Source of the DNA: Escherichia phage slur02
Length of the DNA: 64,000 nucleotides
Direction: 5' to 3' (one strand)
Sequence record: NC_028927.1
Numbering within the stretch: the first letter of the stretch is position 1; every line of letters starts with the position of its first letter. Under the pieces are notes generated by a model. That model did no database searches. It had not been told where the DNA came from and worked only from the letters and a program-made list of their open reading frames with translations. The translations under genes and the position numbers were made by a program. Below are positions 1 to 58,266 of this stretch, one piece after another.

Positions 1-8
1 GGAAAATA

Positions 9-36
9 AAAAAGGACTCCCGAAGGAGTCCTCAAC
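9..36 (-). terminator. rho-independent terminator hairpin (GGACTCC-CGAA-GGAGTCC) with T-run on minus strand
   Basis: Inverted repeat read directly at approx 13-30; A-run on + strand gives T-run on minus-strand RNA; just 3' of ORF 37..255; identical hairpin recurs at approx 54607-54624. Confidence 0.6.
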
Positions 37-255
37 TTATGCTTTCTGCTTACCAAAACGAGAAGCATCATCTCGAAGAACCGCACGTGCTCGGCGCATG
101 ATCTTCTCAACAGTTTGATTGATACGAGAGTTCGACCCACGCTTGTAACCAGCGCGTTTAGAATCACCAACTTTCTTTTCAACTGCTTTCTTTGCTTTAG
201 CTTGTTTTGCCATTATAAATTCTCTTTTAAATGAAAATGCAGGACTTATTGGCAT
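37..255 (-). CDS. small basic hypothetical protein (72 aa)
   Basis: ORF track; Lys/Arg-rich; SD-like AAGAG upstream; co-oriented with rIII; position of T4 30.x ORFs. Confidence 0.55.
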   Translation of the reverse strand: MPISPAFSFKREFIMAKQAKAKKAVEKKVGDSKRAGYKRGSNSRINQTVEKIMRRARAVLRDDASRFGKQKA

Positions 256-501
256 TGCCTGCGCAAGCCCTCAAAGGGGTACTTAGGTTTTGAATATTTA
301 CCGACAGGATAACCATAAACCTCGTCATCATACCACCAAGACTTACACAGATAACACTTTTCTGACGCATGATAGTAACATTCAAGAGGTACACCGTAAA
401 ACTGCCGGGGTCTTAAAACTATAATGATTTGCGAATCATTAATCAGACAGTTCGACGGCTCCTCGATTTAGCTCACACTAAGGCAGTGAATCTCCAATAA
501 A

Positions 502-750
502 TTACTTCAATGTTACCACAAAGTGACGAACTGCTTTTCGTGCAGCAGAAGCCAGAGGCTTAGCATACTTAAGTTCATCTTTTTCCTGAAGCTCAGCAGC
601 TAATGCAGTTTGAGCAGGATTCAGATGTTTGAAATAACGCAGGATTTCAAGAGCTTCGGCTTCAACATCAATAGATGCGCCATAGTTTTCGTGACCATTA
701 TTCCATGCGTTTCGTTGCAGTTCAAGAGCGTGTTGTAATTGTTTAATCAT
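502..750 (-). CDS. rIII: rIII lysis-inhibition accessory protein (82 aa)
   Basis: Length matches T4 RIII and sits next to gene 31; identification by synteny and size only. Confidence 0.65.
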   Translation of the reverse strand: MIKQLQHALELQRNAWNNGHENYGASIDVEAEALEILRYFKHLNPAQTALAAELQEKDELKYAKPLASAARKAVRHFVVTLK

Positions 751-876
751 TTAAAAATTCTCGTTAGAGATTAAAACTCGGTAGTCACGTTCTTCTGAAT
801 TTCATCTTCTTTCGACAGATCTCTCAGTTGTAGACTACCACATAGAATTGAAACTCAATTCATATTATTATTTATA

Positions 877-1212
877 TCACTTATAAAGACACGGAATAGC
901 TTTATAGTGACAGGTAACAAATTTTTGTTTAATTTCTTTTGGCTGCTTAAGACCCAGAGCTACAAAAGGATGCGGAACATTTCGAATTTGACCAACTGGG
1001 AGAGAAGTCAAATCACCAACTTCGCAGAAACCTTCAGGAACATCAGGACCGACAGAGTGAATTACACACAGTTCAGGAACTTCACCTTGAACACGTTTAC
1101 CGATAATAAGTCCTGATTCTGTAACTTCTTCATCACCGGCTTGTGCAGGTTCAGAAACTAAAATAACATATTCACCGACAGCACGAATTGGTAGCTGTTG
1201 TACTTCAGACAT
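877..1212 (-). CDS. 31: gp31 head-assembly co-chaperonin (GroES-like), 111 aa
   Basis: 111 aa as T4 gp31; sequence recalled as gp31-like; synteny rIII-31-cd. Confidence 0.85.
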
Positions 1213-1268
1213 CGTTTTTCCTTTTTGTTAACAGATGAGTTAATAATAACAAATAATTCTTAAAGCAT

Positions 1269-1577
1269 TTATTTACCAATAAATTGAAGCAAATGCTCAA
1301 CTTTCATACCATTAACAGAAATCAATTTGTCAATAGAAAAACCTCGCCATGCACCGAGCTCAACATCAAATACTGGAATCATATCCGTAGATTCTTTCCG
1401 AGTAGATTCAGTCAATTTACCGGTTTGCATGGTTGGCATAAAGTCTGCATCACGAGTACCTTTCATAGTACGAATAGTACCATCAGACTTTTCAAAAACT
1501 ACGTTTGAAACACCCATGGACAGTTTAGTTTTCAAAATTTCACGAATTGCTACTTTCTGCTCAGTTGTCAGTTTCAT
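1269..1577 (-). CDS. hypothetical protein (102 aa)
   Basis: ORF track; co-oriented, tightly packed between 31 and cd. Confidence 0.55.
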   Translation of the reverse strand: MKLTTEQKVAIREILKTKLSMGVSNVVFEKSDGTIRTMKGTRDADFMPTMQTGKLTESTRKESTDMIPVFDVELGAWRGFSIDKLISVNGMKVEHLLQFIGK

Positions 1578-1814
1578 TTATTTACCTATCACAGTTTTAA
1601 TATGAGTTGTTCCACGTTCTTTAAGGGTGGAAAGTAATTTTTGGCATTTTTCTAAATCAGATTTCCAACTATATGGTCTATCAATACTAGTCCAATCAGT
1701 TTTATAATACTGTTTCCATTTAGAGAAAAAATACTTCTTATACTCTACAGCAAATGAAATGTTCTCGTTAGAATAAGAACTAATTGCTGTGAGCTGTACC
1801 AAACGAAATTTCAT
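1578..1814 (-). CDS. hypothetical protein (78 aa)
   Basis: ORF track; abuts neighbours without gap. Confidence 0.5.
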   Translation of the reverse strand: MKFRLVQLTAISSYSNENISFAVEYKKYFFSKWKQYYKTDWTSIDRPYSWKSDLEKCQKLLSTLKERGTTHIKTVIGK

Positions 1815-2395
1815 TATTCACCACAGAATTCGTTGATATTTTCCCAATTTAACTTATTCAAGTTTTTCTTAGGAACATTAAACACTTCAATACCTGCATT
1901 TCGCAGAATATCATCCCAGCCAGGTTTATTTTTATCGTATGTTTCACAATAAACCAGCTTTTTAATTCCAGATTGAGCTATCGCTTTTGCACAATCTGGG
2001 CAAGGAGAAAGTGTTACATACATAGTAGCACCTTCAATAGAAGAACCATTTCGTGCAGCAAACAAAATCGCATTTAGTTCAGCGTGAATTTCATTTTTAG
2101 ACGACCATTCAGAGTGAGCGCTACGGTGTTCTTTCGCCAAGACAAAACGATCAGTTGAACCAAACGATACGCATTCAGGCTTATGACCTTGAATGATAGT
2201 ATGTTTAGGCTTGTTCAACAACCAGCCTTGTTCAGCAGCATAATCACAGCAATTCACACCACCAGCAGGTGAACCATTATATCCGGTAGAAATAATACGT
2301 CCATTCTTTTCAATTACTGCTCCTACCTTCCAGGAGCAGCATTTTGATTCTTGCGATACTAAATATGCAATTTGAAGTACTGTACTCGCTTTCAT
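1814..2395 (-). CDS. cd: dCMP deaminase (193 aa)
   Basis: 193 aa; cytidine/dCMP deaminase zinc motifs HAE...PCxxC visible (HAELNAI, SPCPDCAK); T4 cd position. Confidence 0.9.
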   Translation of the reverse strand: MKASTVLQIAYLVSQESKCCSWKVGAVIEKNGRIISTGYNGSPAGGVNCCDYAAEQGWLLNKPKHTIIQGHKPECVSFGSTDRFVLAKEHRSAHSEWSSKNEIHAELNAILFAARNGSSIEGATMYVTLSPCPDCAKAIAQSGIKKLVYCETYDKNKPGWDDILRNAGIEVFNVPKKNLNKLNWENINEFCGE

Positions 2396-2730
2396 TTCAT
2401 AATCACCAGATAAGCAGATTTAGCAGTTTCTACACGATAAATTTCGTGACGAAGTTTAGTTATACTTTTAATAACAGAACTAATTATATTCTGCCCATCT
2501 TTAAAGCGGTTTTTCTTATCAATAAAAATTGCGCCAACCAGCTTTTTGTGAAGCTCAACTGGATACTTCGTCACAATAATAGCATCATACACAGAAGGAT
2601 GAATACTATTCACTAGAGTGTCATTCATTAAAGTTATTCTAATGAACTGTGCTGTTTCAGAGTCAAGCGCTCTATGATCGCCAGTATCATTTTCAAGACA
2701 ATTATCAATTATATCAGTTAAATTCATCAT
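2392..2730 (-). CDS. hypothetical protein (112 aa)
   Basis: ORF track; 4-nt overlap with cd start (coupled). Confidence 0.5.
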   Translation of the reverse strand: MMNLTDIIDNCLENDTGDHRALDSETAQFIRITLMNDTLVNSIHPSVYDAIIVTKYPVELHKKLVGAIFIDKKNRFKDGQNIISSVIKSITKLRHEIYRVETAKSAYLVIMK

Positions 2731-2963
2731 AGTACGCCATACACCCTTTGTGCTTCAACTAATCCATCAAAATCCAATTTGAGATGTGTTATTTGATCAC
2801 CATCACCTGGATTCACAATTACTAATACTGAACGAGGAGTTTCGGTAATAACGCGAACCGATGTTTCTGGAAATCGTTCAGAAACCTTATTTACCAATTC
2901 CTGAGCAAATAGTTTAACTTTTTCTTGGAATTCTTTAACAGTAATTGGTTTTTCACTTAGCAT
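2727..2963 (-). CDS. hypothetical protein (78 aa)
   Basis: ORF track; overlapping stop/start with neighbours. Confidence 0.5.
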   Translation of the reverse strand: MLSEKPITVKEFQEKVKLFAQELVNKVSERFPETSVRVITETPRSVLVIVNPGDGDQITHLKLDFDGLVEAQRVYGVL

Positions 2964-3502
2964 GTTGATCCCAGCTCCTTACTTTCAACGTTTTTAACTA
3001 ATTTGACAGAAACTAATTCGGCATCTTGGGTAATCATTACCGGGCCTTCTTCATACTCTTCAAGATATTCTAGAGCTTTCTTTTTAGCTTCTTCCTTCGT
3101 ATCAGTTTGAGCATAGATATAAAACATGCAACCACCAGTAATACCTACTACTTTCCACTTAATTTCTTTATCAGTTTTAATTTCAAATTTACTGACAGAA
3201 TCATCTTTTTGAACTTCTTCGAAAAAATAATATTCTGACATATAAGTAATTGAAAATAGCGGGCTATCTTTATAGCATTCGCCCATTACATCAACAGCTT
3301 TATACCAGCAGTCATCAATTTCGCGTTTAATGCTAATAACATTCTTCGCGGGATCAATTTTTACTTTAAATGAATTTTCATCAATAAACTGGGCAATTCG
3401 TTTATTAGCCCCACAAGTTTCATTAAAAATATCTTTATATCCAGCTTTAAAGCGATAAACCTTATCTTCTTCAAACCATTCGCTCATTTTCAATTTCCTC
3501 AT
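2957..3502 (-). CDS. hypothetical protein (181 aa)
   Basis: ORF track; early promoter immediately upstream. Confidence 0.55.
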   Translation of the reverse strand: MRKLKMSEWFEEDKVYRFKAGYKDIFNETCGANKRIAQFIDENSFKVKIDPAKNVISIKREIDDCWYKAVDVMGECYKDSPLFSITYMSEYYFFEEVQKDDSVSKFEIKTDKEIKWKVVGITGGCMFYIYAQTDTKEEAKKKALEYLEEYEEGPVMITQDAELVSVKLVKNVESKELGSTC

Positions 3503-3517
3503 TTGTTTGGTAGAGCT

Positions 3518-3548
3518 ATAATATCACAACTCTACCGTAAAGTAAACT
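3518..3548 (-). promoter_or_regulatory. T4-type early promoter (GTTTAC-N18-TATTAT)
   Basis: Minus-strand reading acaGTTTACtttacggtagagttgtgaTATTATag seen directly (approx coords). Confidence 0.5.
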
Positions 3549-3549
3549 G

Positions 3550-3825
3550 TTAAATTGCTTTGAATTCTGATGTCTGTGATTCAAAGCGAATATCGCCTTT
3601 GATGACTAGCTCAGCATCAAGACCAAATACGACAATGATATGCGCAGAACCTGGATACAGCGTAATGGCAATAGAATCCACCTGGTCTGGAAGCAAAGTG
3701 TTCAATACATGAGTCACTTGAGCATGAATTCGAAGCTCGGCTGCGTTATCAAGCTTTTCAAACATATTATTAGCGATAATTTGGCTAAAAACTACTTCTA
3801 CGATTTTAGAATAAGTCGGAAACAT
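3550..3825 (-). CDS. hypothetical protein (91 aa)
   Basis: ORF track; co-oriented. Confidence 0.5.
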   Translation of the reverse strand: MFPTYSKIVEVVFSQIIANNMFEKLDNAAELRIHAQVTHVLNTLLPDQVDSIAITLYPGSAHIIVVFGLDAELVIKGDIRFESQTSEFKAI

Positions 3826-3827
3826 AT

Positions 3828-4020
3828 TTACCTCACATAATTTTCTTCAAGCCAATCAATAACATCCAACGCATTATCAAAAGTTGAACCATCTACTTTT
3901 TCTTCTGTTTCATAATCAAGAACATCTAAGCCTAATCTTCCGTTAACAATAGGCCATAAACAAAATAGATATTTCTTTTCTTTTTCAATTTTATCACAAA
4001 GACGATAAATCTTTTCTAGA

Positions 4021-4028
<8 letters not shown>
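3828..4028 (-). CDS. hypothetical protein (66 aa)
   Basis: ORF track; tight packing. Confidence 0.45.
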
Positions 4029-5443
<1,415 letters not shown>

Positions 5444-5677
5444 TTATTTTTTCTCAACCAATGATTGAATATAATCATGCAGGTCTTTAGATGCTTTACC
5501 CCACTTATTTTGATATTCATTTTTGAGATTAGCGCGTGATTGAGCTAATAAAACATCATTAGTTGGAGGTAAAGATTCTAATCGCTGAATCTGGCGTCCA
5601 TAAATCATTGCAGCCATCTCGGATTCATAAATCAATCCTTTAAGATGTTCAAATTGATGCCATGAAATCATTTGCAT
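5444..5677 (-). CDS. hypothetical protein (77 aa)
   Basis: ORF track. Confidence 0.45.
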   Translation of the reverse strand: MQMISWHQFEHLKGLIYESEMAAMIYGRQIQRLESLPPTNDVLLAQSRANLKNEYQNKWGKASKDLHDYIQSLVEKK

Positions 5678-5967
5678 TTATCCTCTTTTAACTCTTGACG
5701 ATAATAACATATCATAGTTTTCTGGTCATGTACATATCGTTTTACATCATTAAGCCAAATACGAAATTCCTGGGAATCTTCAAATGGCATACCGACCCAA
5801 GCTTTACCATCAATAACTTTAACTTGCCAAGATAGTTTAGCTTCATCATATGACTTTATCTGCACAGGCCAATTAGGATGAACTGTTTCTTTCTTTACTT
5901 CTAGAGGCTTTGTCGAACAACCAACTAGAAGACCAATAGATAATATTACTGCTGATAGTCTAATCAT
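5668..5967 (-). CDS. putative lipoprotein (99 aa)
   Basis: N-terminal signal peptide with lipobox LLVGCS seen in translation. Confidence 0.55.
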   Translation of the reverse strand: MIRLSAVILSIGLLVGCSTKPLEVKKETVHPNWPVQIKSYDEAKLSWQVKVIDGKAWVGMPFEDSQEFRIWLNDVKRYVHDQKTMICYYRQELKEDKCK

Positions 5968-6317
5968 TTAGAAAGGTCCTGGATGTCTTCTACGAACTTG
6001 TTGAAGGAGTTATTGATTTGTTTTTCAACCAATCCTGGCTTATGAGCCACCACATCCGCCTTCTTTGCGTCTTTGCGCAGTTTTTCATTTTCACGCTCAA
6101 TAGCAGCAATTGCCTCACGATTTTTATTATTCATCGCATCAATATAATTATACTGAATTCGCAAATTATTTAATGCTAAAGCGTTTTCATTGGCCGTTTT
6201 TGTAATTTCTACAACAGACGTTTCTAATCTTTCAATTTTGTTTTTTAAAATTAAAGAAGTTCCGCCCAATGCAATTACAATTAATAGCAAGCCTGTTGTC
6301 ATATTACTTAATTGCAT
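5964..6317 (-). CDS. hypothetical membrane-anchored protein (117 aa)
   Basis: N-terminal hydrophobic helix followed by charged, coiled-coil-like sequence. Confidence 0.5.
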   Translation of the reverse strand: MQLSNMTTGLLLIVIALGGTSLILKNKIERLETSVVEITKTANENALALNNLRIQYNYIDAMNNKNREAIAAIERENEKLRKDAKKADVVAHKPGLVEKQINNSFNKFVEDIQDLSK

Positions 6318-6814
6318 AAAGTTTTAATAACCTCTATAATATCGTCTTGAGAAAGACCATTAATTAAAATATGATGTTCAGCCGGAGATTTAGAAATTTT
6401 AAAGCATGCCTCAACATCTTCTGCCATATCCGATGCGCTACGATTTGGATTACTAATTCCAAGACGATGTTTTCCCGTTAAAGGATTAACGATGATATAG
6501 CATTTACAGCTATTGATATGAACATTAGGTTGAGTCTGATTAATGAACACTTCACAATCATACTTAGCGAGTTGATTTTCTAAAAAGACTTTCATCTCTT
6601 CAACCGCATCAGGAAGCATATCACGGGCTTGCTCAAGACGACGATTTCGATATTCTTTAATGGTCGTTTTCCGCTTGACTTGCTTAGCTAAATCTTTCTT
6701 AAGATCGGTGATATATCCAACTCGACGATTTCCTTTAAATACAGAAATCCCATCTGTAGTATCACCGTATGCTTCAACGACCATTTCAGTAGTAATAAGC
6801 TGCAAATCCATCAT
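6308..6814 (-). CDS. alc: probable Alc (host transcription terminator on dC-DNA), 168 aa ORF
   Basis: Size and position (between pseT region and rnlA) match T4 alc; no motif confirmation. Confidence 0.5.
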   Translation of the reverse strand: MMDLQLITTEMVVEAYGDTTDGISVFKGNRRVGYITDLKKDLAKQVKRKTTIKEYRNRRLEQARDMLPDAVEEMKVFLENQLAKYDCEVFINQTQPNVHINSCKCYIIVNPLTGKHRLGISNPNRSASDMAEDVEACFKISKSPAEHHILINGLSQDDIIEVIKTLCN

Positions 6815-6842
6815 AAAGTCCTCATGTTATGTCAGTAAGATT

Positions 6843-6872
6843 ACTATAACACAACACGAGGGACTTGTAAAC
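6843..6872 (-). promoter_or_regulatory. T4-type early promoter (GTTTAC-N18-TATAGT)
   Basis: Minus-strand GTTTACaagtccctcgtgttgtgtTATAGT in the rnlA-alc gap (approx coords). Confidence 0.5.
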
Positions 6873-6875
6873 AGC

Positions 6876-8463
<1,588 letters not shown>

Positions 8464-8470
8464 AATAAAA

Positions 8471-8486
8471 TGGGCCTTGCGGCCCA
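8471..8486 (-). other. GC hairpin (TGGGCC-GCAA-GGCCCA) between nrdB stop and denA start
   Basis: Perfect 6 bp stem with tetraloop read directly; U-rich 3' flank on minus-strand RNA; lies within about 10 nt of the denA ATG. Confidence 0.5.
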
Positions 8487-8490
8487 CTCC

Positions 8491-9669
8491 TTAAAAATAT
8501 TTTTTAAAACTCATCATAACTTTATCATCAACGTCATTATCAATCTGTGCTACAAGATAAGATGACAGTTCTACTTCTTGCGGCGCGGATTGAACATTAT
8601 CAGAATTAAGATATTCACGAATCCAAGGATATGGATGTTTAACCGGAGCATCGGTAATTGGGCATGGAAGACCACACTGTTTCATACGAGATACAGTTAA
8701 GTAATCAATAAAGCTCCACATGCTATTTGTATTTAATCCAGGAACATCGCCATCTTTAAATAAATGAACTGCCCAATCTTTTTCTTGGCGGTTAACTTCC
8801 ATGAAAATATCAACTGCTTCTTGTTCACACTCTTTGGCAATTTTAACCCATTCATCACCATCCGTGCCAAGTTGAAGTTGACGAATAATATATTGTGTAC
8901 CTTTAAGATGAAGCTGCTCATCACGTGCAATGAACTTCATAATCTTGGCATTACCTTCCATGATTTCCATGTTCTTATGGAAGTTAAAGGTACATGCGAA
9001 AGATACATAAAAACGAATAGCTTCCAATGCGTTGATTACGTGTAGGCAGAGGTAAAGAGAGCGCATTAGTTCACGTTTCCAATACATTTCATGCTCTATG
9101 GCATCTTTAATATCATCTTCGTCTGCATTAATTTCTTTTTGGTATTCGATATCAGCTTTAGCGTTTTCCCAATAACGAGTTTTAATCAGAACATCATCAT
9201 AATAACGTCCAATGGATTCAGCACGTTTCATAATAGCTTCATCTAATACAATTTCATCAAATACCTTCGATGGATCAGTATAAAGATTTCGCATGATATG
9301 TGTATATGAACGACTGTGAATAGTTTCACTAAAAGTCCATGTAGCAACCCATGTATCAAGACTTGGGTCTGAAATTAACGACATAAGTACAGCAGATGGT
9401 GCACGACCCTGAATGCTATCCAAAAGTGATTGATACTTCAGGTTATTAGTAAAAATATCTTGCTGATATTGAGGAAGCTTGTTAAATTGCGCAGCATCCA
9501 TCATTAAGTTTACTTCTTCGGGACGCCAAAAAAATGATAAAGATTTCTCAATAAGTTCTTCAAATACTCTATGTCGTTGAATATCATATCGAGCTAAACC
9601 CAATCCAGAACCAAAAAACATCGGCTCAGTCAAAATATTAACAGGGGATGTATTAAAAACTGTACTCAT
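8491..9669 (-). CDS. nrdB: ribonucleotide reductase small subunit (NrdB)
   Basis: 392 aa continuous ORF (no intron) in the denA-nrdB-nrdA arrangement of T4. Confidence 0.95.
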   Translation of the reverse strand: MSTVFNTSPVNILTEPMFFGSGLGLARYDIQRHRVFEELIEKSLSFFWRPEEVNLMMDAAQFNKLPQYQQDIFTNNLKYQSLLDSIQGRAPSAVLMSLISDPSLDTWVATWTFSETIHSRSYTHIMRNLYTDPSKVFDEIVLDEAIMKRAESIGRYYDDVLIKTRYWENAKADIEYQKEINADEDDIKDAIEHEMYWKRELMRSLYLCLHVINALEAIRFYVSFACTFNFHKNMEIMEGNAKIMKFIARDEQLHLKGTQYIIRQLQLGTDGDEWVKIAKECEQEAVDIFMEVNRQEKDWAVHLFKDGDVPGLNTNSMWSFIDYLTVSRMKQCGLPCPITDAPVKHPYPWIREYLNSDNVQSAPQEVELSSYLVAQIDNDVDDKVMMSFKKYF

Positions 9670-10307
9670 TTAGAATCCTTAAATTTACATTTATCATAAT
9701 GCCATCTTAAAGCATTGCCTTTATTAACTTTCTTGCCACAATGCGGACAAGGCGGATACTCTGTACCTTGCTTAGTTCTCAAAGAAATCAAATCACGGGT
9801 TTCTTTAGTATGAGGAACATCTCTTGTCGGAGAGATTGTACCATACATCGGATTAAGCACGCCGACTTTAGCAGCAGCTATATTCTTTTTAGCTTCTTCG
9901 GTTTTAGGTTTTCTCATGCGAGCTAAATGCTCTTTGGTAAATTTCCTTCCTTTAAGGGCTCTACTTATCTTTTCTCTGGTTTCCATAGAAACTTCACGTC
10001 CTGTAGCAGCTTCAGATAAACGTCGTCTACCTAATTCGTACAGTTGAGAAGAAATTTTATATGAGCGATTTTTACCAGTCAAGCACATTAAACCAAAAGC
10101 TTTCTTTAATCCTGGGGTGTCATATATTTTACATAAAAGCCAATGAGCTATAAAATGCTCTCTACCTGTTAATTCAACTAAATTTTCTTTATCATCAGAA
10201 CCTCCCATACATCTAGGGATTATATGATGTGTCTCTTTATATTCAGATAAAGGTTCCCGAGCCTGAGCTCGGGAAATTAGGTCATTATAGATTTTTTGAT
10301 AATTCAT
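9666..10307 (-). CDS. mobE: HNH endonuclease, freestanding homing-endonuclease-like (mobE-like), 213 aa
   Basis: HNH motif HHIIPRCMGGSDDKENLVELTGREHFIAHW; wedged between nrdA and nrdB with overlapping boundaries as for T4 mobE. Confidence 0.75.
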   Translation of the reverse strand: MNYQKIYNDLISRAQAREPLSEYKETHHIIPRCMGGSDDKENLVELTGREHFIAHWLLCKIYDTPGLKKAFGLMCLTGKNRSYKISSQLYELGRRRLSEAATGREVSMETREKISRALKGRKFTKEHLARMRKPKTEEAKKNIAAAKVGVLNPMYGTISPTRDVPHTKETRDLISLRTKQGTEYPPCPHCGKKVNKGNALRWHYDKCKFKDSK

Positions 10308-12571
10308 TACAATTTACACGCTGCACAATCTTCAGCTTTTGGAGTTTCTATTTCATAATCATCAGTACCAGAACCATCGCGGGTATTATGATAATAGAAA
10401 TTTTTTCCGCCAAAATACCAAAAATACAAAAGGTCATCAATCATTATTGACATTGGAACCTTGCCTTTAGGGAAGATTTGGGGGTCATAGTATGTATTCG
10501 CCGAAGCTGATTGACAAACCCATTTCAGCATAATAGCTACCTGCGTAAGATAAGGTTTATTACCTTTCTTAGCTAATTTCCATGTATAGTCGTAAAGGTC
10601 TATGTTATGCTCAATATTGGGCACGACTTGATTAAAGGAGCCCTCTTTTGATTCTTTAACAGAGACTGGTCCACGTGGAGGCTCGATACCGTTTGTACTG
10701 TTAGAAACTTGGGAAGATGACTCACATGGCATAAGTGCTGATAATGTGCTATTACGGATGCCAAAGAGCTTAAGGTCTTCCCGCAGCGACGACCAGTCAC
10801 AAACGTATTTTGGAGCTGCGATTTGGTCAATCTTTTTATTGTACCAGTCGATAGGTAATTCGCCTCGAGACCAACGAGTGTCTGAATAATATTCGCAAGG
10901 TCCTTTTTCTTTGGCGAGCTTAATGGATGCTTTAATGAGTCCATACTGTAATCTCTCAAATAGTTCATGTGTTAAATCGTTAGCATCTTCATAAGAAGCA
11001 AAGTTACTTGCCAGCCAAGCTGCATAGTTAGTAACACCTACACCAAGGTTTCGACGCTTTTTAGCTTTTTCTGCTTCAGGAACTGGATATCCTTGGTAAT
11101 CCAAAAGATTATCAAGAGCACGAACTTGAACTTCTGCTAATTCATTAATTTTATCTTGGTCTTGCCAATCGAAGTTATCCAGCACAAATGCAGATAACGT
11201 GCACAATCCAATTTCAGCATCAGGGCTATTCACATCATTTGTTGGAATAGCAATTTCACAGCACAAGTTACTCTGACGAATAGGTGCCTTTTCACGAATA
11301 AACGGAGTATAGTTATTCGTATTATCAATGAACTGCACATAAATCCTTGCTGTTCCTGAGCGTTCAGTCATGAGCAATTCAAATAGTTCACGGGCTTTAA
11401 TACGCTTTTTGCGAATATTAGGGTCTTTTTCTGCTGCTTCGTATAATTCACGGAAACGGTCTTGGTCTTTAAAATAAGAATAATAAAGCTCGCCACCCAT
11501 TTCATGCGGACTGAACAAAGTAATGTAGTCGTTCTTTCCAAAACGTTCCATCATTAGATCATTCAGTTGAACACCATAATCCATATGACGAATGCGGTTT
11601 TCTTCTACACCTTTGTTATTTTTCAAAACAAGAAGATTTTCAACTTCCAAATGCCAAATAGGATAATAAGCAGTAGCAGCGCCGCCACGAATTCCACCTT
11701 GTGAGCATGATTTAACAGCAGTCTGAAAATGTTTCCAAAAAGGAATAACACCAGTATGGCGTACTTCACCCATGCCAATCTTAGAACCTTCGGCACGAAT
11801 CATACCAACGTTAATACCAATTCCAGCACGTTTGGAGATATATTCAACAATTGAAGCGGAAGCCTTATTGATAGACTTTAATGAATCACCTGCCTCAATA
11901 ACAACACATGAACTAAACTGTCGAGTCGGAGTACGACAACCAGCCATAATAGGAGTTGGTAATGAAATCTGTCGAGTAGATACTGCTTCATAAAAACGGA
12001 TAACGTGTTTTAATCTATCAACAGGTTCATCTTGATGCAGTGCCATTCCAATAGTCATAAATGCAAACTGTGGAGTTTCATAAATTTGACCAGTGGTTTT
12101 ATCTTTAACTAAATATTTTTCTTTTAATTGCATCGCCCCGGAATAAGTAAATTCCATATCCCGCTCGTGCTTAATTTTTGATTCTAAAAATGTAATTTCT
12201 TCTGCTGAATATTTTGACAATAATTCAGGGTCATATTTACCTGCATTTACACAATAAGAAATATGGTCAATAAATGAACGTGGTTCATACTGCCCATAAA
12301 CATGCTTACGAAGAGCAAACATTAAACAGCGTGCAGCTACATATTGATAATCAGGCTCTTCAACCGAAATAGAATTCGCAGCAGCCTTAATGACAATAGT
12401 CTGAATATCATCAGTTGTCATTCCATCACGGAGATAAGATTTAATATTTTCATATAATTCATAAGGATCTACTGATGTTCCTTCAGCTGCCCAAGATAAA
12501 ACTTTAATAATTTTTTGTGGGTCAAAGCTCTGAGAAACACCACTACTTTTGATAACATTAATTAATTGCAT
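10307..12571 (-). CDS. nrdA: ribonucleotide reductase large subunit (NrdA), 754 aa
   Basis: 754 aa as T4 NrdA; class I RNR large-subunit sequence; synteny. Confidence 0.95.
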   Translation of the reverse strand: MQLINVIKSSGVSQSFDPQKIIKVLSWAAEGTSVDPYELYENIKSYLRDGMTTDDIQTIVIKAAANSISVEEPDYQYVAARCLMFALRKHVYGQYEPRSFIDHISYCVNAGKYDPELLSKYSAEEITFLESKIKHERDMEFTYSGAMQLKEKYLVKDKTTGQIYETPQFAFMTIGMALHQDEPVDRLKHVIRFYEAVSTRQISLPTPIMAGCRTPTRQFSSCVVIEAGDSLKSINKASASIVEYISKRAGIGINVGMIRAEGSKIGMGEVRHTGVIPFWKHFQTAVKSCSQGGIRGGAATAYYPIWHLEVENLLVLKNNKGVEENRIRHMDYGVQLNDLMMERFGKNDYITLFSPHEMGGELYYSYFKDQDRFRELYEAAEKDPNIRKKRIKARELFELLMTERSGTARIYVQFIDNTNNYTPFIREKAPIRQSNLCCEIAIPTNDVNSPDAEIGLCTLSAFVLDNFDWQDQDKINELAEVQVRALDNLLDYQGYPVPEAEKAKKRRNLGVGVTNYAAWLASNFASYEDANDLTHELFERLQYGLIKASIKLAKEKGPCEYYSDTRWSRGELPIDWYNKKIDQIAAPKYVCDWSSLREDLKLFGIRNSTLSALMPCESSSQVSNSTNGIEPPRGPVSVKESKEGSFNQVVPNIEHNIDLYDYTWKLAKKGNKPYLTQVAIMLKWVCQSASANTYYDPQIFPKGKVPMSIMIDDLLYFWYFGGKNFYYHNTRDGSGTDDYEIETPKAEDCAACKL

Positions 12572-17700: not shown

Positions 17701-17745
17701 ATAGCTGGTCAGTGAGATAATTATAATCTATTTATAATAAGCAAT
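17700..17745 (-). promoter_or_regulatory. overlapping late (TATAAATA) and middle (MotA box TTGCTTA, 12 bp spacer, TATAAT) promoters for gene 32
   Basis: Minus-strand aattGCTTAttataaatagatTATAATtatctc; TATAAATA present on the transcribed strand (approx coords). Confidence 0.5.
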
Positions 17746-18398
17746 TAATACTTGCAAGATTTCACAGTTTCAATGAAAACATTTTTAGCTTTCTGTGAAT
17801 CAATATTTAAAATTTTTCTATAAGCCTTTAACTTTATAGAATAATTATTCCAGACTAAATTATCAGTCTGTTCATCATGTTTATCAATTATATTTAAAAA
17901 CGAATCAAGCAAGATAAACGTCTCAAACGAAATTATGTTCGATTGCAGAAGTTTAAAAATATAACTTGACTGAACTTTTGGATTATATTCAAAGATTTCT
18001 TTAAAAGCAGAAACTTCAACTTTTTTACTAAAATAATAAATGTTGCGAATATCTTCTTCAAACTTAAATTTAATTTGCTTTAAGCGTCCGATATATTCAC
18101 GATAAAACACAAGTGCATCAGCGTCAGAGATGTCACCAATCCAAGCATCTTGGTTAGCAACAAGATTGCTTATAAAGATTAAAGCAAGTTCCTTTAATTT
18201 ATATTTTTCTGATAACTTCTGGAAAAAATACTTATCCCTTCGCTTTTGATAAGCGGCATCAGACACCCGCATGCACCAATTATACTTAATAACATCATAC
18301 TTTCCATTCATATGCTGTTTTATCATTAAGTATAATTTATAAACTGATTTACCATCAATGTATCTTTCACCACCAGCAGGCATGCGGAGTTTAATCAT
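17745..18398 (-). CDS. 59: gp59 helicase-loading protein (217 aa)
   Basis: 217 aa as T4 gp59; synteny 32-59-33. Confidence 0.9.
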   Translation of the reverse strand: MIKLRMPAGGERYIDGKSVYKLYLMIKQHMNGKYDVIKYNWCMRVSDAAYQKRRDKYFFQKLSEKYKLKELALIFISNLVANQDAWIGDISDADALVFYREYIGRLKQIKFKFEEDIRNIYYFSKKVEVSAFKEIFEYNPKVQSSYIFKLLQSNIISFETFILLDSFLNIIDKHDEQTDNLVWNNYSIKLKAYRKILNIDSQKAKNVFIETVKSCKY

Positions 18399-55101: not shown

Positions 55102-55301
55102 TTTGAATGCTCTATAATTAATTTTAAGGCTTCTTCATGCAACCACTTACCTGGTATATGTCCAGTTTTAATTGTGTGAGCTTTGCGGAGCTGATTAGAT
55201 AAGAGCTCACATATGAGCTCTTTGTCATAATTTTTAAATAGCTGGTCAATACGTTTCTTGCGGGCTTTCTTAAGCTGACGTTTATTTAAACGAGCCATCA
55301 A
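55098..55301 (-). CDS. hypothetical basic protein (67 aa)
   Basis: ORF track. Confidence 0.5.
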   Translation of the reverse strand: MMARLNKRQLKKARKKRIDQLFKNYDKELICELLSNQLRKAHTIKTGHIPGKWLHEEALKLIIEHSK

Positions 55302-55816
55302 TAACCTCGGTCTTGACGAGCAAAGTTTTCAGCATTTTTCAGATAATAAAGTTTAAAGATTTCTTCAGCCGTAAGACCGAGACCTTGGAACATGTTCAGA
55401 ACGAAATGAAGAATATCAATCATTTCGAATTTAATTTCCAACTGGTCTTGTGGAGACAAATCAGTAATTAGAGTTTCACGACGTTCACCATGCTGTGACT
55501 TCCAAGGTTTCCATACAGCAGATGCATCTTTTTCACCATTGCTCATACCGCCAAGAGAAGTCAGAAGTTCACGGAATTCATCATCAATGTAATCTTTCTG
55601 ATTACGCAGCCAATCAACAACTTCGCCTGCAGTAGCCAAATCATCAGGATGACGGTTATATTCAGGTTTATCTTTAGCTAAACGAATCTGCAGAGATTTC
55701 TGCATGTCAAGCATTACCTGCAGCGGGTCTTTTTCATCACCGAGAATATCCCAATATTCATTTTGAGCTTTATCAGCGCCTTCAATCAGTTGTGAACATT
55801 CATTAAAATATGCCAT
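55298..55816 (-). CDS. 56: gp56 dCTPase/dUTPase (MazG-like), 171 aa
   Basis: Track ORF trimmed to Met32 (MAYFNECSQL), preceded by AAGGAAAAATA; 171 aa as T4 gp56. Confidence 0.85.
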   Translation of the reverse strand: MAYFNECSQLIEGADKAQNEYWDILGDEKDPLQVMLDMQKSLQIRLAKDKPEYNRHPDDLATAGEVVDWLRNQKDYIDDEFRELLTSLGGMSNGEKDASAVWKPWKSQHGERRETLITDLSPQDQLEIKFEMIDILHFVLNMFQGLGLTAEEIFKLYYLKNAENFARQDRGY

Positions 55817-55887
55817 TATTTTTCCTTTCAATTCATGGGTTAGTAGATTAATTATACAATAAATATATAAAGCAATAAGGAGGACAT

Positions 55888-56088
55888 ATGGTACAAAAAT
55901 TAATGGCACTTGTTGATGCCATAAAAGGTAATAAAAAACGTATAGCTTTTACTATTTCTGCTATGGTAGGAATTTTACTCTGGAACTTTATTTTATCACC
56001 TGTTGCAATTGCACATGGTATTAATATTCCAGTAGTTACTCTTGATACATTCGTAGATTTAGCATTTGCTTTAGTTGGGTTAATTTAA
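55888..56088 (+). CDS. small membrane protein candidate (66 aa), plus strand, convergent with gene 61
   Basis: Strong SD AAGGAGG 5 nt before the ATG; two hydrophobic segments; stop codon overlaps the gene 61 stop on the opposite strand. Confidence 0.45.
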   Translation: MVQKLMALVDAIKGNKKRIAFTISAMVGILLWNFILSPVAIAHGINIPVVTLDTFVDLAFALVGLI

Positions 56089-57113
56089 ATCTTAGCATAT
56101 TTAGATAGCCGCATTTTAGCCATCAACCCCTGGGCAATATTATTTTTCATATATTCCATAATTTGTTCAGGGGTTGCACCTTCCTTTCTAATCATATCAT
56201 TAACATCTTTTGATTTCCAGGGAGATTTATCCCAAAACATAACCCTTTCTCCTGCATCAACTAATTTAGTCATTCGCTTAATAGTGTCAGGATGACGAGG
56301 TTCATTATCTAAAACCCACACTCGTCTATCTTTAAATGGAACAACTTCTAGGTCTAATTGACCACCCGTAATAGCTATACCATTTTCAATAAAAAGTGAA
56401 TCTATAGGTCCTTCTAGAACATATACATCACCATCTTTAACTCGTTCGACTCCATAGATTTTTGTTGCTTCAGGATAAGCTTTGATAGTGATATATTTTT
56501 GGGGAGCATCTTTCTTTAATGCACGTCCTTGAAAAGACTCAGCTTTTCCATTAGCATTATAAATTGGAATAACAAGACGAGGCTCAGGTATTTCCTTTTT
56601 ATATGTTCCCGGTGCTATGCTATTAACTAATTTAGGCCATTCAGTTGTAAACCAAAGATATTTCCATTTATCCTTTGGAATACAACGAGCTTTTACATAT
56701 TTTATAATTGGATGGTCTTCCGCCAGTTTATCTAATCTAACACATGACGGAAGAGATTTAATTATTTTCTTCTCAGGTTGTTTAGGAAGTTCTTTAGGTT
56801 TTTCTACTGGACGACTTTTACCTTTTTCTTTTCTTATTTCAAAGATATACTCACGATATAAATCAGGTTCAAACTCCTTTAAATATATTCCGATTGGTGC
56901 ATGATAGTTACAGTTATAACAATGAATATTTCCTTCATTATTATCACCATAATACCATCCACGAGCTTTATTCTGGTCGGTTTTTGAATCTCCACAAACA
57001 GGACATCTAAACCGTAATTTAAAAGTTGAACTATTATTTACTTGTGTGAATTTAGGTAAATGAGCTAATGCACGGTATGCAAACTCATTATCAATCCAAG
57101 GTATTGATGACAT
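56085..57113 (-). CDS. 61: gp61 DNA primase (342 aa)
   Basis: N-terminal zinc ribbon CPVCGDSK ... CYNC; Toprim region; 342 aa as T4 gp61. Confidence 0.9.
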   Translation of the reverse strand: MSSIPWIDNEFAYRALAHLPKFTQVNNSSTFKLRFRCPVCGDSKTDQNKARGWYYGDNNEGNIHCYNCNYHAPIGIYLKEFEPDLYREYIFEIRKEKGKSRPVEKPKELPKQPEKKIIKSLPSCVRLDKLAEDHPIIKYVKARCIPKDKWKYLWFTTEWPKLVNSIAPGTYKKEIPEPRLVIPIYNANGKAESFQGRALKKDAPQKYITIKAYPEATKIYGVERVKDGDVYVLEGPIDSLFIENGIAITGGQLDLEVVPFKDRRVWVLDNEPRHPDTIKRMTKLVDAGERVMFWDKSPWKSKDVNDMIRKEGATPEQIMEYMKNNIAQGLMAKMRLSKYAKI

Positions 57114-57278: not shown

Positions 57279-57328
57279 ATATTAACCTCTATTCATAAAA
57301 GCATTAAAAATTTGGTCATCAATAGATG
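57279..57328. repeat. direct repeat copy 1 (approx 46 bp)
   Basis: attaacctctattcataaaagcattaaaaatttggtcatcaatagat, near-identical to the copy at approx 57639. Confidence 0.8.
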
Positions 57329-57638
57329 GAATAGCAACCTTTTCGGCATCATTTAGCAAATCATTAATTTCATCAGATAGCATAACACATGTGCCTTTAT
57401 TTCCTGTAATTGTTACTGCACAATTACGAACGTTTTCTTTATCAAATTTTAGGTTAATATTTTCGTAGTGAAAATCCTTTAATGCCGAATATATCTTTAA
57501 AATGAAATTGTCTTTTACTACAATAAACCCAACTTCACTATTAAAACGTGGTTCATGGAAACTGTAATAAACCTTTTCATCTATGAAATCGTATGAAATT
57601 TTTTCCATTTTTAAATATGAAAATTCAGAACTATACAT
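57282..57638 (-). CDS. hypothetical protein (118 aa), paralog of the C-terminal half of the next ORF
   Basis: Shares motif YxSF...VG-F/I-x-VKDN-x-I and an identical C-terminal tail SIDDQIFNAFMNR with ORF 57640..58266. Confidence 0.5.
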   Translation of the reverse strand: MYSSEFSYLKMEKISYDFIDEKVYYSFHEPRFNSEVGFIVVKDNFILKIYSALKDFHYENINLKFDKENVRNCAVTITGNKGTCVMLSDEINDLLNDAEKVAIPSIDDQIFNAFMNRG

Positions 57639-57686
57639 ATTAATCTCTATTCATAAAAGCATTAAAAATTTGGTCATCAATAGAAA
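57639..57686. repeat. direct repeat copy 2 (approx 46 bp)
   Basis: attaatctctattcataaaagcattaaaaatttggtcatcaatagaa; one mismatch to copy 1. Confidence 0.8.
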
Positions 57687-58266
57687 CATTTACTTTAGAC
57701 TGTTTTTCAGATGGCAATTCATATCCACATATTACAATTTTATGATCAATATCAAAATACACAGAAGCAATATGATTAATGATATTTTCAGTGAAGTCTA
57801 AATCGACATCAATATCTTTTTGACCAAATCCCAGAGGATAAATAATGCGAGTAATTCGATTATCTTTAACAAAGATTCCACCGACATACTCTGTACTGCG
57901 TTTAAAGTCTACACGCCGACGAAATGAAAAATATTCAGGCTCTTTATGAGCTCGGCTCATAGGACACAACGAATAACTAGAATAAGAGATGTCAAATCCT
58001 ACGCCTTCGATATGAGCCAAAGTGTCATGATTAAACCAATTATAATCGTACGCCAAATCCATTAGATTATAATATGTAAAAGGCACCGGATTAACATCAT
58101 TAGTCACAAGCATGTAATTAGCAACTGCTATAATTTCATTGTTTTTAACGAATACAAACCGTGATTGATGCGAATGACCTGGACCCGCGTTTTCACGATT
58201 AATGATATAACACTGGGCACCTTTATATTTGTATGTATCTTTGCACTTGTGCATTTGATAGAGCAT
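57640..58266 (-). CDS. hypothetical protein (208 aa) with internally repeated FVKxN domain, 61.2-like position
   Basis: Internal repeat RFVFVKNNEIIAVANY / GGIFVKDNRITRIIY; C-terminus duplicated in the adjacent ORF. Confidence 0.55.
   Translation of the reverse strand: MLYQMHKCKDTYKYKGAQCYIINRENAGPGHSHQSRFVFVKNNEIIAVANYMLVTNDVNPVPFTYYNLMDLAYDYNWFNHDTLAHIEGVGFDISYSSYSLCPMSRAHKEPEYFSFRRRVDFKRSTEYVGGIFVKDNRITRIIYPLGFGQKDIDVDLDFTENIINHIASVYFDIDHKIVICGYELPSEKQSKVNVSIDDQIFNAFMNRD

Follow-up and report, generated by a model that had tools for sequence, protein, structure and literature searches.

The gap between genes 56 and 61 of the phage studied here holds a small open reading frame (ORF) on the strand opposite to all of its neighbors, which raises the question of whether this frame is a gene, when its product would be made and what it might do, and whether its presence has anything to do with the dam methyltransferase gene that T4 carries at the same site. 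The window (the whole stretch of DNA that was analyzed, 64,000 nt) is a circular permutation of the genome of Escherichia phage slur04 (NC_042130, Tequatrovirus), with 100% identity in every stretch compared. Compared at its positions 1 and 53488, the window maps to NC_042130 from record position 113685 onward and then to positions 1–10513; ∼127 nt at the record end are unaccounted for and may represent a terminal repeat or an assembly junction.

Identity of the Plus-Strand ORF

A sequence-only reading of the window had described a gap of approximately 270 bp containing a 66-aa plus-strand ORF, oriented against every flanking gene and ending in a stop codon that overlaps the stop codon of gene 61 on the other strand. 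This description agrees with what we found: the gap runs from 55817 to 56084 (268 bp, from the ORF list and the sequence), the flanking genes all lie on the minus strand, and the two convergent stop codons (56086–56088 on the plus strand, TAA, and 56085–56087 on the minus strand) overlap within a palindromic TTAA (Table 1). Its near-perfect Shine-Dalgarno (SD) motif, AAGGAGG, is also present, with a spacer to the start codon one nucleotide shorter than the 5 nt that had been given.

Table 1. Features of the gene 56–61 interval and its flanks, in window coordinates.
Feature	Position	Strand	Remarks
Gene 56 (dCTPase), left neighbor	55298..55816	−	ORF list, slur04 annotation
Predicted MotA-dependent middle promoter of gene 56	55851..55874	−	Sequence reading, pattern search
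AATAAATA, predicted gp55-type late promoter	55858..55865	+	A(−13) variant of TATAAATA; ends 22 nt before ATG
Shine-Dalgarno AAGGAGG	55877..55883	+	4-nt spacer (ACAT) to ATG
dam.1 CDS	55888..56088	+	ATG start, 66 aa plus stop
Terminator-like hairpin (AUGGCAU..GUGCCAU) and U-run	55893..55922	−	Downstream of gene 61; stem 55922–55903
TTAA, overlapping convergent stops of dam.1 and gene 61	56085..56088	both	Sequence
Gene 61 (DNA primase), right convergent neighbor	56085..57113	−	ORF list, slur04 annotation

Judged by sequence comparison, the ORF is the T-even gene dam.1, which we read as a true, conserved protein-coding gene. It was already known, being annotated in slur04 (FDJ55_gp008, hypothetical protein, in RefSeq) and named in one T4 record, that of T4T (HM137666), as dam.1, “hypothetical protein Dam.1” (T4Tp032, ADJ39749.1); the RB10 record carries “dam.1” as a note, and the RB32 counterpart is RB32ORF030w. 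The slur04 protein is 97% identical to T4T Dam.1 and matches PHROG 2024, a family of unknown function, at E = 4.1e-31 (residues 2–66 on positions 1–65 of the 65-position profile). By tblastn, Dam.1 was found in 696 phage records, including T4 at 97% identity. In the library of papers that was searched, dam.1 is not mentioned under any of its identifiers. The ORF is neither peculiar to slur04 nor tied to the loss of dam, as T4 itself carries it. We assign a probability of roughly 0.6 to the joint reading that dam.1 is coding, is transcribed late and yields a single-pass inner-membrane product, with slur04 merely being without the accessory gene dam.

Coding Evidence

The coding tests compared the nucleotide sequences of 18 copies, drawn from Tequatrovirus, Mosigvirus, Gaprivervirus, and Karamvirus; IMG/VR scans yielded seven loci. 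None of the 18 copies, across the four genera, has an interrupted plus frame, and over seven within-genus pairs the pooled pN/pS was 0.19 for the annotated frame, compared with 0.67 for the +1 and 2.73 for the +2 frame. Variable columns fall mostly at third codon positions (9/3/13, 7/0/12, and 2/2/9 at positions 1/2/3), and the length variants of 63 and 62 aa are in frame. Synonymous divergence (dS) is saturated between genera, yet the core WNF..P...AHG..P.V.L is kept, and every T4-like lineage examined retains the start codon together with a strong SD (AAGGAGG, TAAGGAG, or TAGGAGG). Because the frame is open in every copy and purifying selection is specific to it, the openness of the dam.1 ORF is far beyond chance. 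Estimates of dN/dS for the same genome pairs ranged from 0.11 to 0.42 in dam.1 vs. 0.00 to 0.08 in the primase gene; by this measure dam.1 is constrained, but faster-evolving than its neighbor.

The opposing view, that the frame is open by accident and the DNA is conserved only for a gene 61 terminator and a gene 56 promoter on the minus strand, takes its strength from the gap itself, which does bear a terminator-like hairpin and a MotA-type promoter on that strand, and from the curated T4 reference, which leaves the ORF unannotated. The hairpin is embedded in dam.1 codons 6–12, with a folding energy of −8.2 kcal/mol (z = −2.2), and is kept among Tequatrovirus phages whether or not they have dam. 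It is absent from other genera, however, whereas the protein is conserved in six. Plus-frame-specific selection, frames that stay open despite saturated synonymous divergence, and the retained start codon and SD also speak against an accidental ORF, which we rejected on the coding tests (frame-specific selection, open frames, and dN/dS) and consider very improbable. The gap had no matching family in Rfam. The hairpin stem is palindromic, so that a plus-strand mRNA can form it too.

We also considered that the selected frame might be antisense, continuing the frame of gene 61 past its stop codon as a read-through extension of the primase. The antisense frame that shares wobble positions with dam.1 (55888–56085, minus strand) runs without a stop for 66 codons in slur04, T4, and Mosigvirus, and its pooled pN/pS was 0.26. 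A low ratio is nevertheless expected wherever third positions are shared with a real gene, and the plus-strand ORF contains no Tyr codons, one His, and one Gln, so that few antisense stops are possible to begin with. Since such stops do interrupt the antisense frame in eight copies (five from Tequatrovirus, both from Gaprivervirus, and CkP1), we regard it as the usual mirror-frame artefact, and give primase read-through a negligible chance of being the selected product.

Predicted Late Promoter and Overlapping Minus-Strand Signals

The sequence-only reading had reported that no exact late promoter lies upstream of the ORF. This is correct for TATAAATA, no exact copy of which occurs upstream of dam.1, but the variant AATAAATA in the gap had been missed. 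A list of 50 T4 late promoters (PMC2988020) includes 32 exact copies of TATAAATA; the commonest variant, with A at −13, accounts for nine more. Within the window (128 kb, both strands), AATAAATA occurs at six sites vs. 13.7 expected, with at least six sites in 100 of 100 shuffles. TATAAATA occurs at seven sites vs. 9.9 expected, and one copy is located just upstream of soc, which we take to be a late gene in T4. The under-representation of both octamers is consistent with selection against stray late promoters.

T4, slur04, Mosigvirus, Gaprivervirus, Jiaodavirus, and one further locus (L034) have a shorter match, NATAAATA, whose end is 16–22 nt away from the ATG; it is conserved amid otherwise unrelated upstream sequence, and can stand to either side of the minus-strand MotA box. 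The full octamer is GATAAATA in T4 vs. AATAAATA in slur04 and also in Mosigvirus, and CATAAATA in Gaprivervirus, Jiaodavirus, and L034; Karamvirus and Gelderlandvirus have ATTAAATA at the octamer site, with a mismatch inside the heptamer. The annotation of phage Lutter marks GATAAATA at the same place as a promoter. NATAAATA was not found in the non-T4 relatives of Dam.1. By the strand-polarity rule in PMC2988020, and with an octamer that in slur04 deviates from TATAAATA at a single position and is placed for transcription to start just upstream of the SD, dam.1 is probably transcribed late, with the caveat that the octamer is a variant and not the consensus. With the T4 late genes served by gp55, gp33, and gp45, dam.1 shares the late-only strand polarity, the commonest single deviation (A at −13), and a short leader with a strong SD; it differs from them in that its octamer is non-consensus, is itself predicted, and is overlapped by a predicted divergent middle promoter.

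This putative middle promoter of gene 56, recognized by the consensus known for T4 middle promoters, comprises a MotA box (TGCTTTA, 55874–55868), an 11-nt spacer, and a −10 element (TATAAT, 55856–55851). A similar MotA box is present in Gaprivervirus and also, as judged by alignment, between dam and gene 56 in T4. In slur04 the late octamer sits within the spacer of the middle promoter, so that part of its conservation could serve the minus-strand promoter there; in Mosigvirus and Gaprivervirus it sits outside that spacer, which speaks for conservation of the octamer on account of the plus strand. The interval would thus be tightly packed on both strands, with a predicted late promoter inside a middle-promoter spacer and a predicted minus-strand terminator inside plus-strand codons.

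A late plus-strand transcript might matter as RNA, running antisense into gene 61 and shutting down primase synthesis late in infection, with the peptide secondary. No plus-strand terminator was found within 500 nt after the ORF, dam.1 and gene 61 converge with overlapping stops in four genera, and late antisense transcription across early regions is known in T4 (PMC2988020). Set against these points are the constraint at the protein level, the conserved SD, and the relatives of Dam.1 in non-T4 phages and prophage-like islands, where there is no convergent primase gene. They show that the protein itself is selected, which is compatible with an additional antisense role, and we consider it improbable that the transcript is the main product of the locus.

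Predicted Structure and Topology of Dam.1

An AlphaFold2 model of Dam.1 built on a 26-sequence alignment (pLDDT 83.7) predicts helices at residues 2–12, 16–42, and 52–63, of which the second is a long transmembrane (TM) helix and the third a short C-terminal one. Of the two hydrophobic segments noted in the sequence-only reading, the first corresponds to the predicted TM helix, but the second falls away as a membrane segment: helix 52–63 is too short to span the membrane, bears D53 and D57, and is non-hydrophobic in subtypes B and C. Across 25 family members, 121 Lys and Arg residues lie N-terminal to the TM core vs. 13 on its C-terminal side, and the C-terminal part is net acidic (40 Asp and Glu). 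Under the positive-inside rule, the bias of basic residues toward the N-terminal part points to a single-pass inner-membrane protein with an N-in/C-out topology. The N-terminus, an amphipathic helix with a KGNKKR cluster, is predicted to be cytoplasmic, and G44..P48 to form a periplasmic loop. Residues W32, N33, P38, G44, P48, and G64 are invariant among the 26 T4-like sequences; in the wider family P38 alone is invariant, and N33, G44, and P48 are each conserved in >90%.

Combined with the preferred reading of dam.1 as a late gene, this model would have late transcription from the predicted promoter followed by translation from the strong SD, leaving the basic N-terminus in the cytoplasm and an acidic C-terminal stretch of ∼24 residues in the periplasm. 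The conserved features would then be a polar W-N pair in the middle of the membrane and a G..LP..(D/E) motif just outside it, and Dam.1 could act at the envelope late in infection, for example by tuning lysis or its timing through contact with another membrane protein.

Distant Relatives

An exhaustive profile search of 1.84 billion representatives recovered 20 clusters only, all of proteins of 33–82 aa, and a fold search against viral structures returned family members only. Some of the relatives come from genomes of E. coli, Raoultella, and Cronobacter, where they occupy the margins of prophage-like islands. At such loci in E. coli and Raoultella (L025–L029), the Dam.1-like gene is near alkA and a MASE1-PAS-GGDEF gene and belongs to a conserved module of lysozyme, GIY-YIG, ∼196-aa, ∼106-aa, and Dam.1-like genes. 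In Raoultella, the module is followed by a RelA_SpoT-domain gene, possibly a toxic small alarmone synthetase carried as cargo.

Relatives in unclassified phages are situated beside endonuclease VII, within late tail/lysis regions, with a conserved ∼180-aa protein encoded after them and a ∼106-aa protein in most contexts; slur04 has no counterpart of either partner. Two loci (L030 and L031) have a tight co-directional run of Dam.1-like, 180-aa, 109-aa, and lysozyme genes, the lysozyme being 55% identical to the gene e-type lysozyme of slur04 and 43% to gp5, and adjoining a protein with a TM segment and a coiled coil that has a weak Rz-like match. The ∼180-aa and ∼106-aa partners were tried as spanins and rejected, as they have no TM segment and no lipobox. 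A general lysis cassette among the distant relatives was likewise rejected, with lysozyme in the operon only in L030 and L031.

Candidate Functions

A late accessory role at the envelope or in lysis is our tentative and frankly speculative suggestion for Dam.1, one that we hold to be possible although the odds are against it. A more specific version, in which the W-N pair and the periplasmic tail would act on an envelope protein of the host or the phage to tune lysis, lysis inhibition, or the integrity of the envelope and the small family is shared with unrelated enterobacterial phages, is somewhat more doubtful.

Could Dam.1 be a true holin homolog instead, equivalent to the last TM helix and tail of the GTA_holin_3TM/PHROG 3427 proteins and able to form lesions? 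Proteins P0116 and P0119 match the “holin” profile PHROG 3427 at E = 5e-4 and 2e-3 (positions 75–127 of 141), P0115 and P0116 reach E = 0.1 and 0.03 against the corresponding part of PF11351, one ortholog is named “Holin” in UniProt, and the L030/L031 operons link the family to an endolysin-type lysozyme. The PF11351 scores (13.6–15.3 bits), however, are far under the 24.8-bit gathering cut-off, neither Pfam nor NCBIfam has a family that matches slur04 Dam.1 itself, and tblastn recovered dam.1 homologs only. Because the same proteins match unrelated membrane proteins equally strongly (with E = 1.2e-3 for an MFS exporter, and with further matches to a porin and the TM helix of an acetylcholine receptor), we take the holin-family matches to be noise, and after searches of PHROGs, Pfam, NCBIfam, and PDB profiles and by tblastn we discounted them as evidence of homology.

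The general properties of holins lead to a similar view. Class II holins, pinholins, and T4 gpT and RI are, like Dam.1, small, membrane-inserted, and probably late, and Dam.1 has the small size and at least one TM segment expected of a holin (66 aa, predicted TM 16–42). It differs from these holins and antiholins in having a single TM helix, where PF11351 proteins have three, and in its distribution of charge: a highly charged C-terminal tail is missing (the C-terminus reads VDLAFALVGLI), and the KGNKKR cluster is N-terminal. Nor does it show significant homology to them. In T4-like phages dam.1 has genes 56 and 61 as neighbors and no endolysin or spanin gene, and is not near e, t, rI, or rIII. 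The essential holin of T4 is gpT, and T4 lysis requires it, so Dam.1 is not sufficient for lysis. Dam.1 is not the essential holin, and we find descent from a holin family quite unlikely.

The envelope proteins Imm and Sp, encoded a few kb away in the 56–42 early region of T4, offer another model, that of a superinfection-exclusion or immunity-type membrane protein. Dam.1 resembles them as a small accessory protein of predicted envelope location, its family is confined to phages of enterobacteria, and its relatives at prophage edges lie among accessory genes such as that for the RelA_SpoT protein. Yet imm and sp belong to the early genes, lie on the early (minus) strand, and have known exclusion functions, whereas dam.1 is on the late-only strand, and a protein expressed late would come too late to exclude superinfecting phage for most of the cycle. 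Dam.1 has no sequence similarity to Imm or Sp either. We consider an exclusion function unlikely.

Locus Context and the Absence of dam

The sequence-only reading had mentioned a dam gene near this position in T4, its exact place being uncertain, and had supposed that, if it lay between genes 56 and 61 there, the present phage lacks it at that site; it had also proposed searching the genome for a dam homolog and comparing the interval across T-even phages. T4 does have dam there, its order being 56–dam–dam.1–61, and the slur04 order is 56–ORF–61. A tblastn search of the whole slur04 genome with T4 Dam found no dam (best E = 0.95, vs. 1e-176 for the T4 control). Across phage records, dam was found in 184, and dam.1 at ≥80% identity in ∼500 Tequatrovirus records; on these counts the missing dam of slur04 is an ordinary, common polymorphism. 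In T4 and slur04 alike, dam.1 is placed and oriented identically with respect to gene 61 and is preceded by one and the same SD and by an octamer of the late type. They differ in that dam (780 bp) and a further 112 bp separate gene 56 from dam.1 in T4, whereas dam.1 of slur04 abuts the gene 56 promoter.

Across six Tevenvirinae genera (Tequatrovirus, Mosigvirus, Gaprivervirus, Karamvirus, Gelderlandvirus, and Jiaodavirus), comparison of the interval showed a conserved ORF that runs toward the primase gene, with a constant dam.1–61 junction. The gene 56 side of the gap is variable: slur04 has nothing there, T4 has dam, Lutter has dam together with a 186-aa ORF, CkP1 has a 101-aa ORF, and L034 has three small ORFs. 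The 4-bp overlap of the two stop codons also occurs in F31, VR26 (second copy), and CkP1, and in KP179 an 18-bp gap between dam.1 and gene 61 takes its place. In Gaprivervirus, dam.1-family genes occur as a tandem pair whose members belong to different subtypes (VR26, L005, 2495–2692 and 2701–2901; also L019) and lie 8 nt apart. The first copy resembles the Tequatrovirus/Mosigvirus type and the second, which overlaps the primase stop, the Klebsiella-phage type.

The T4 Reference Annotation

T4 is the best-studied phage, yet the conserved gene dam.1 is missing from its reference records. The dam–61 gap is unannotated in NC_000866.4 and AF158101.6, although the ORF is intact there (∼17738–17938) and differs by one base from T4T and resequenced wild-type T4 (GCT to ACT, Ala25Thr). 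RNA-seq work based on NC_000866 omits dam.1 because the record does not annotate the gene; one T4 RNA-seq dataset that uses this annotation is an example. A 2025 antisense-oligomer paper does not cover T4. Studies that rely on the NC_000866 annotation are blind to dam.1, and its inclusion in the reference would cost little and be of modest importance. Our finding is correct but ordinary, and its main value lies in flagging this gap. Should the more specific of the functional readings above hold, Dam.1 would be an overlooked late inner-membrane component of T-even infection, absent from omics and mutant studies, and would define a small family that in unrelated enterobacterial phages is linked both to a lysozyme of endolysin type and to the conserved ∼180-aa partner.

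Other Observations in the Region

Comparison with L011, L018, and L019 divides gene 56 itself into two classes of alleles, with ∼72% amino acid identity and dS >1. Phages with differing gene 56 alleles have flanking primase genes that are 98–100% identical, and the allele classes suggest mosaic exchange at the locus. Some phages carry a SegF homing endonuclease gene in place of soc.1/soc.2 at the gene 56 locus. Upstream of gene 61.1, a 118-aa minus-strand ORF (57282–57638) is a partial paralog of the adjoining 208-aa gp61.2 (57640–58266, minus strand), with 34% identity over ∼100 aa (E = 9e-9), and both proteins have SIDDQIFNAFMNR at their ends; in T4 the 208-aa gene stands alone at this site.
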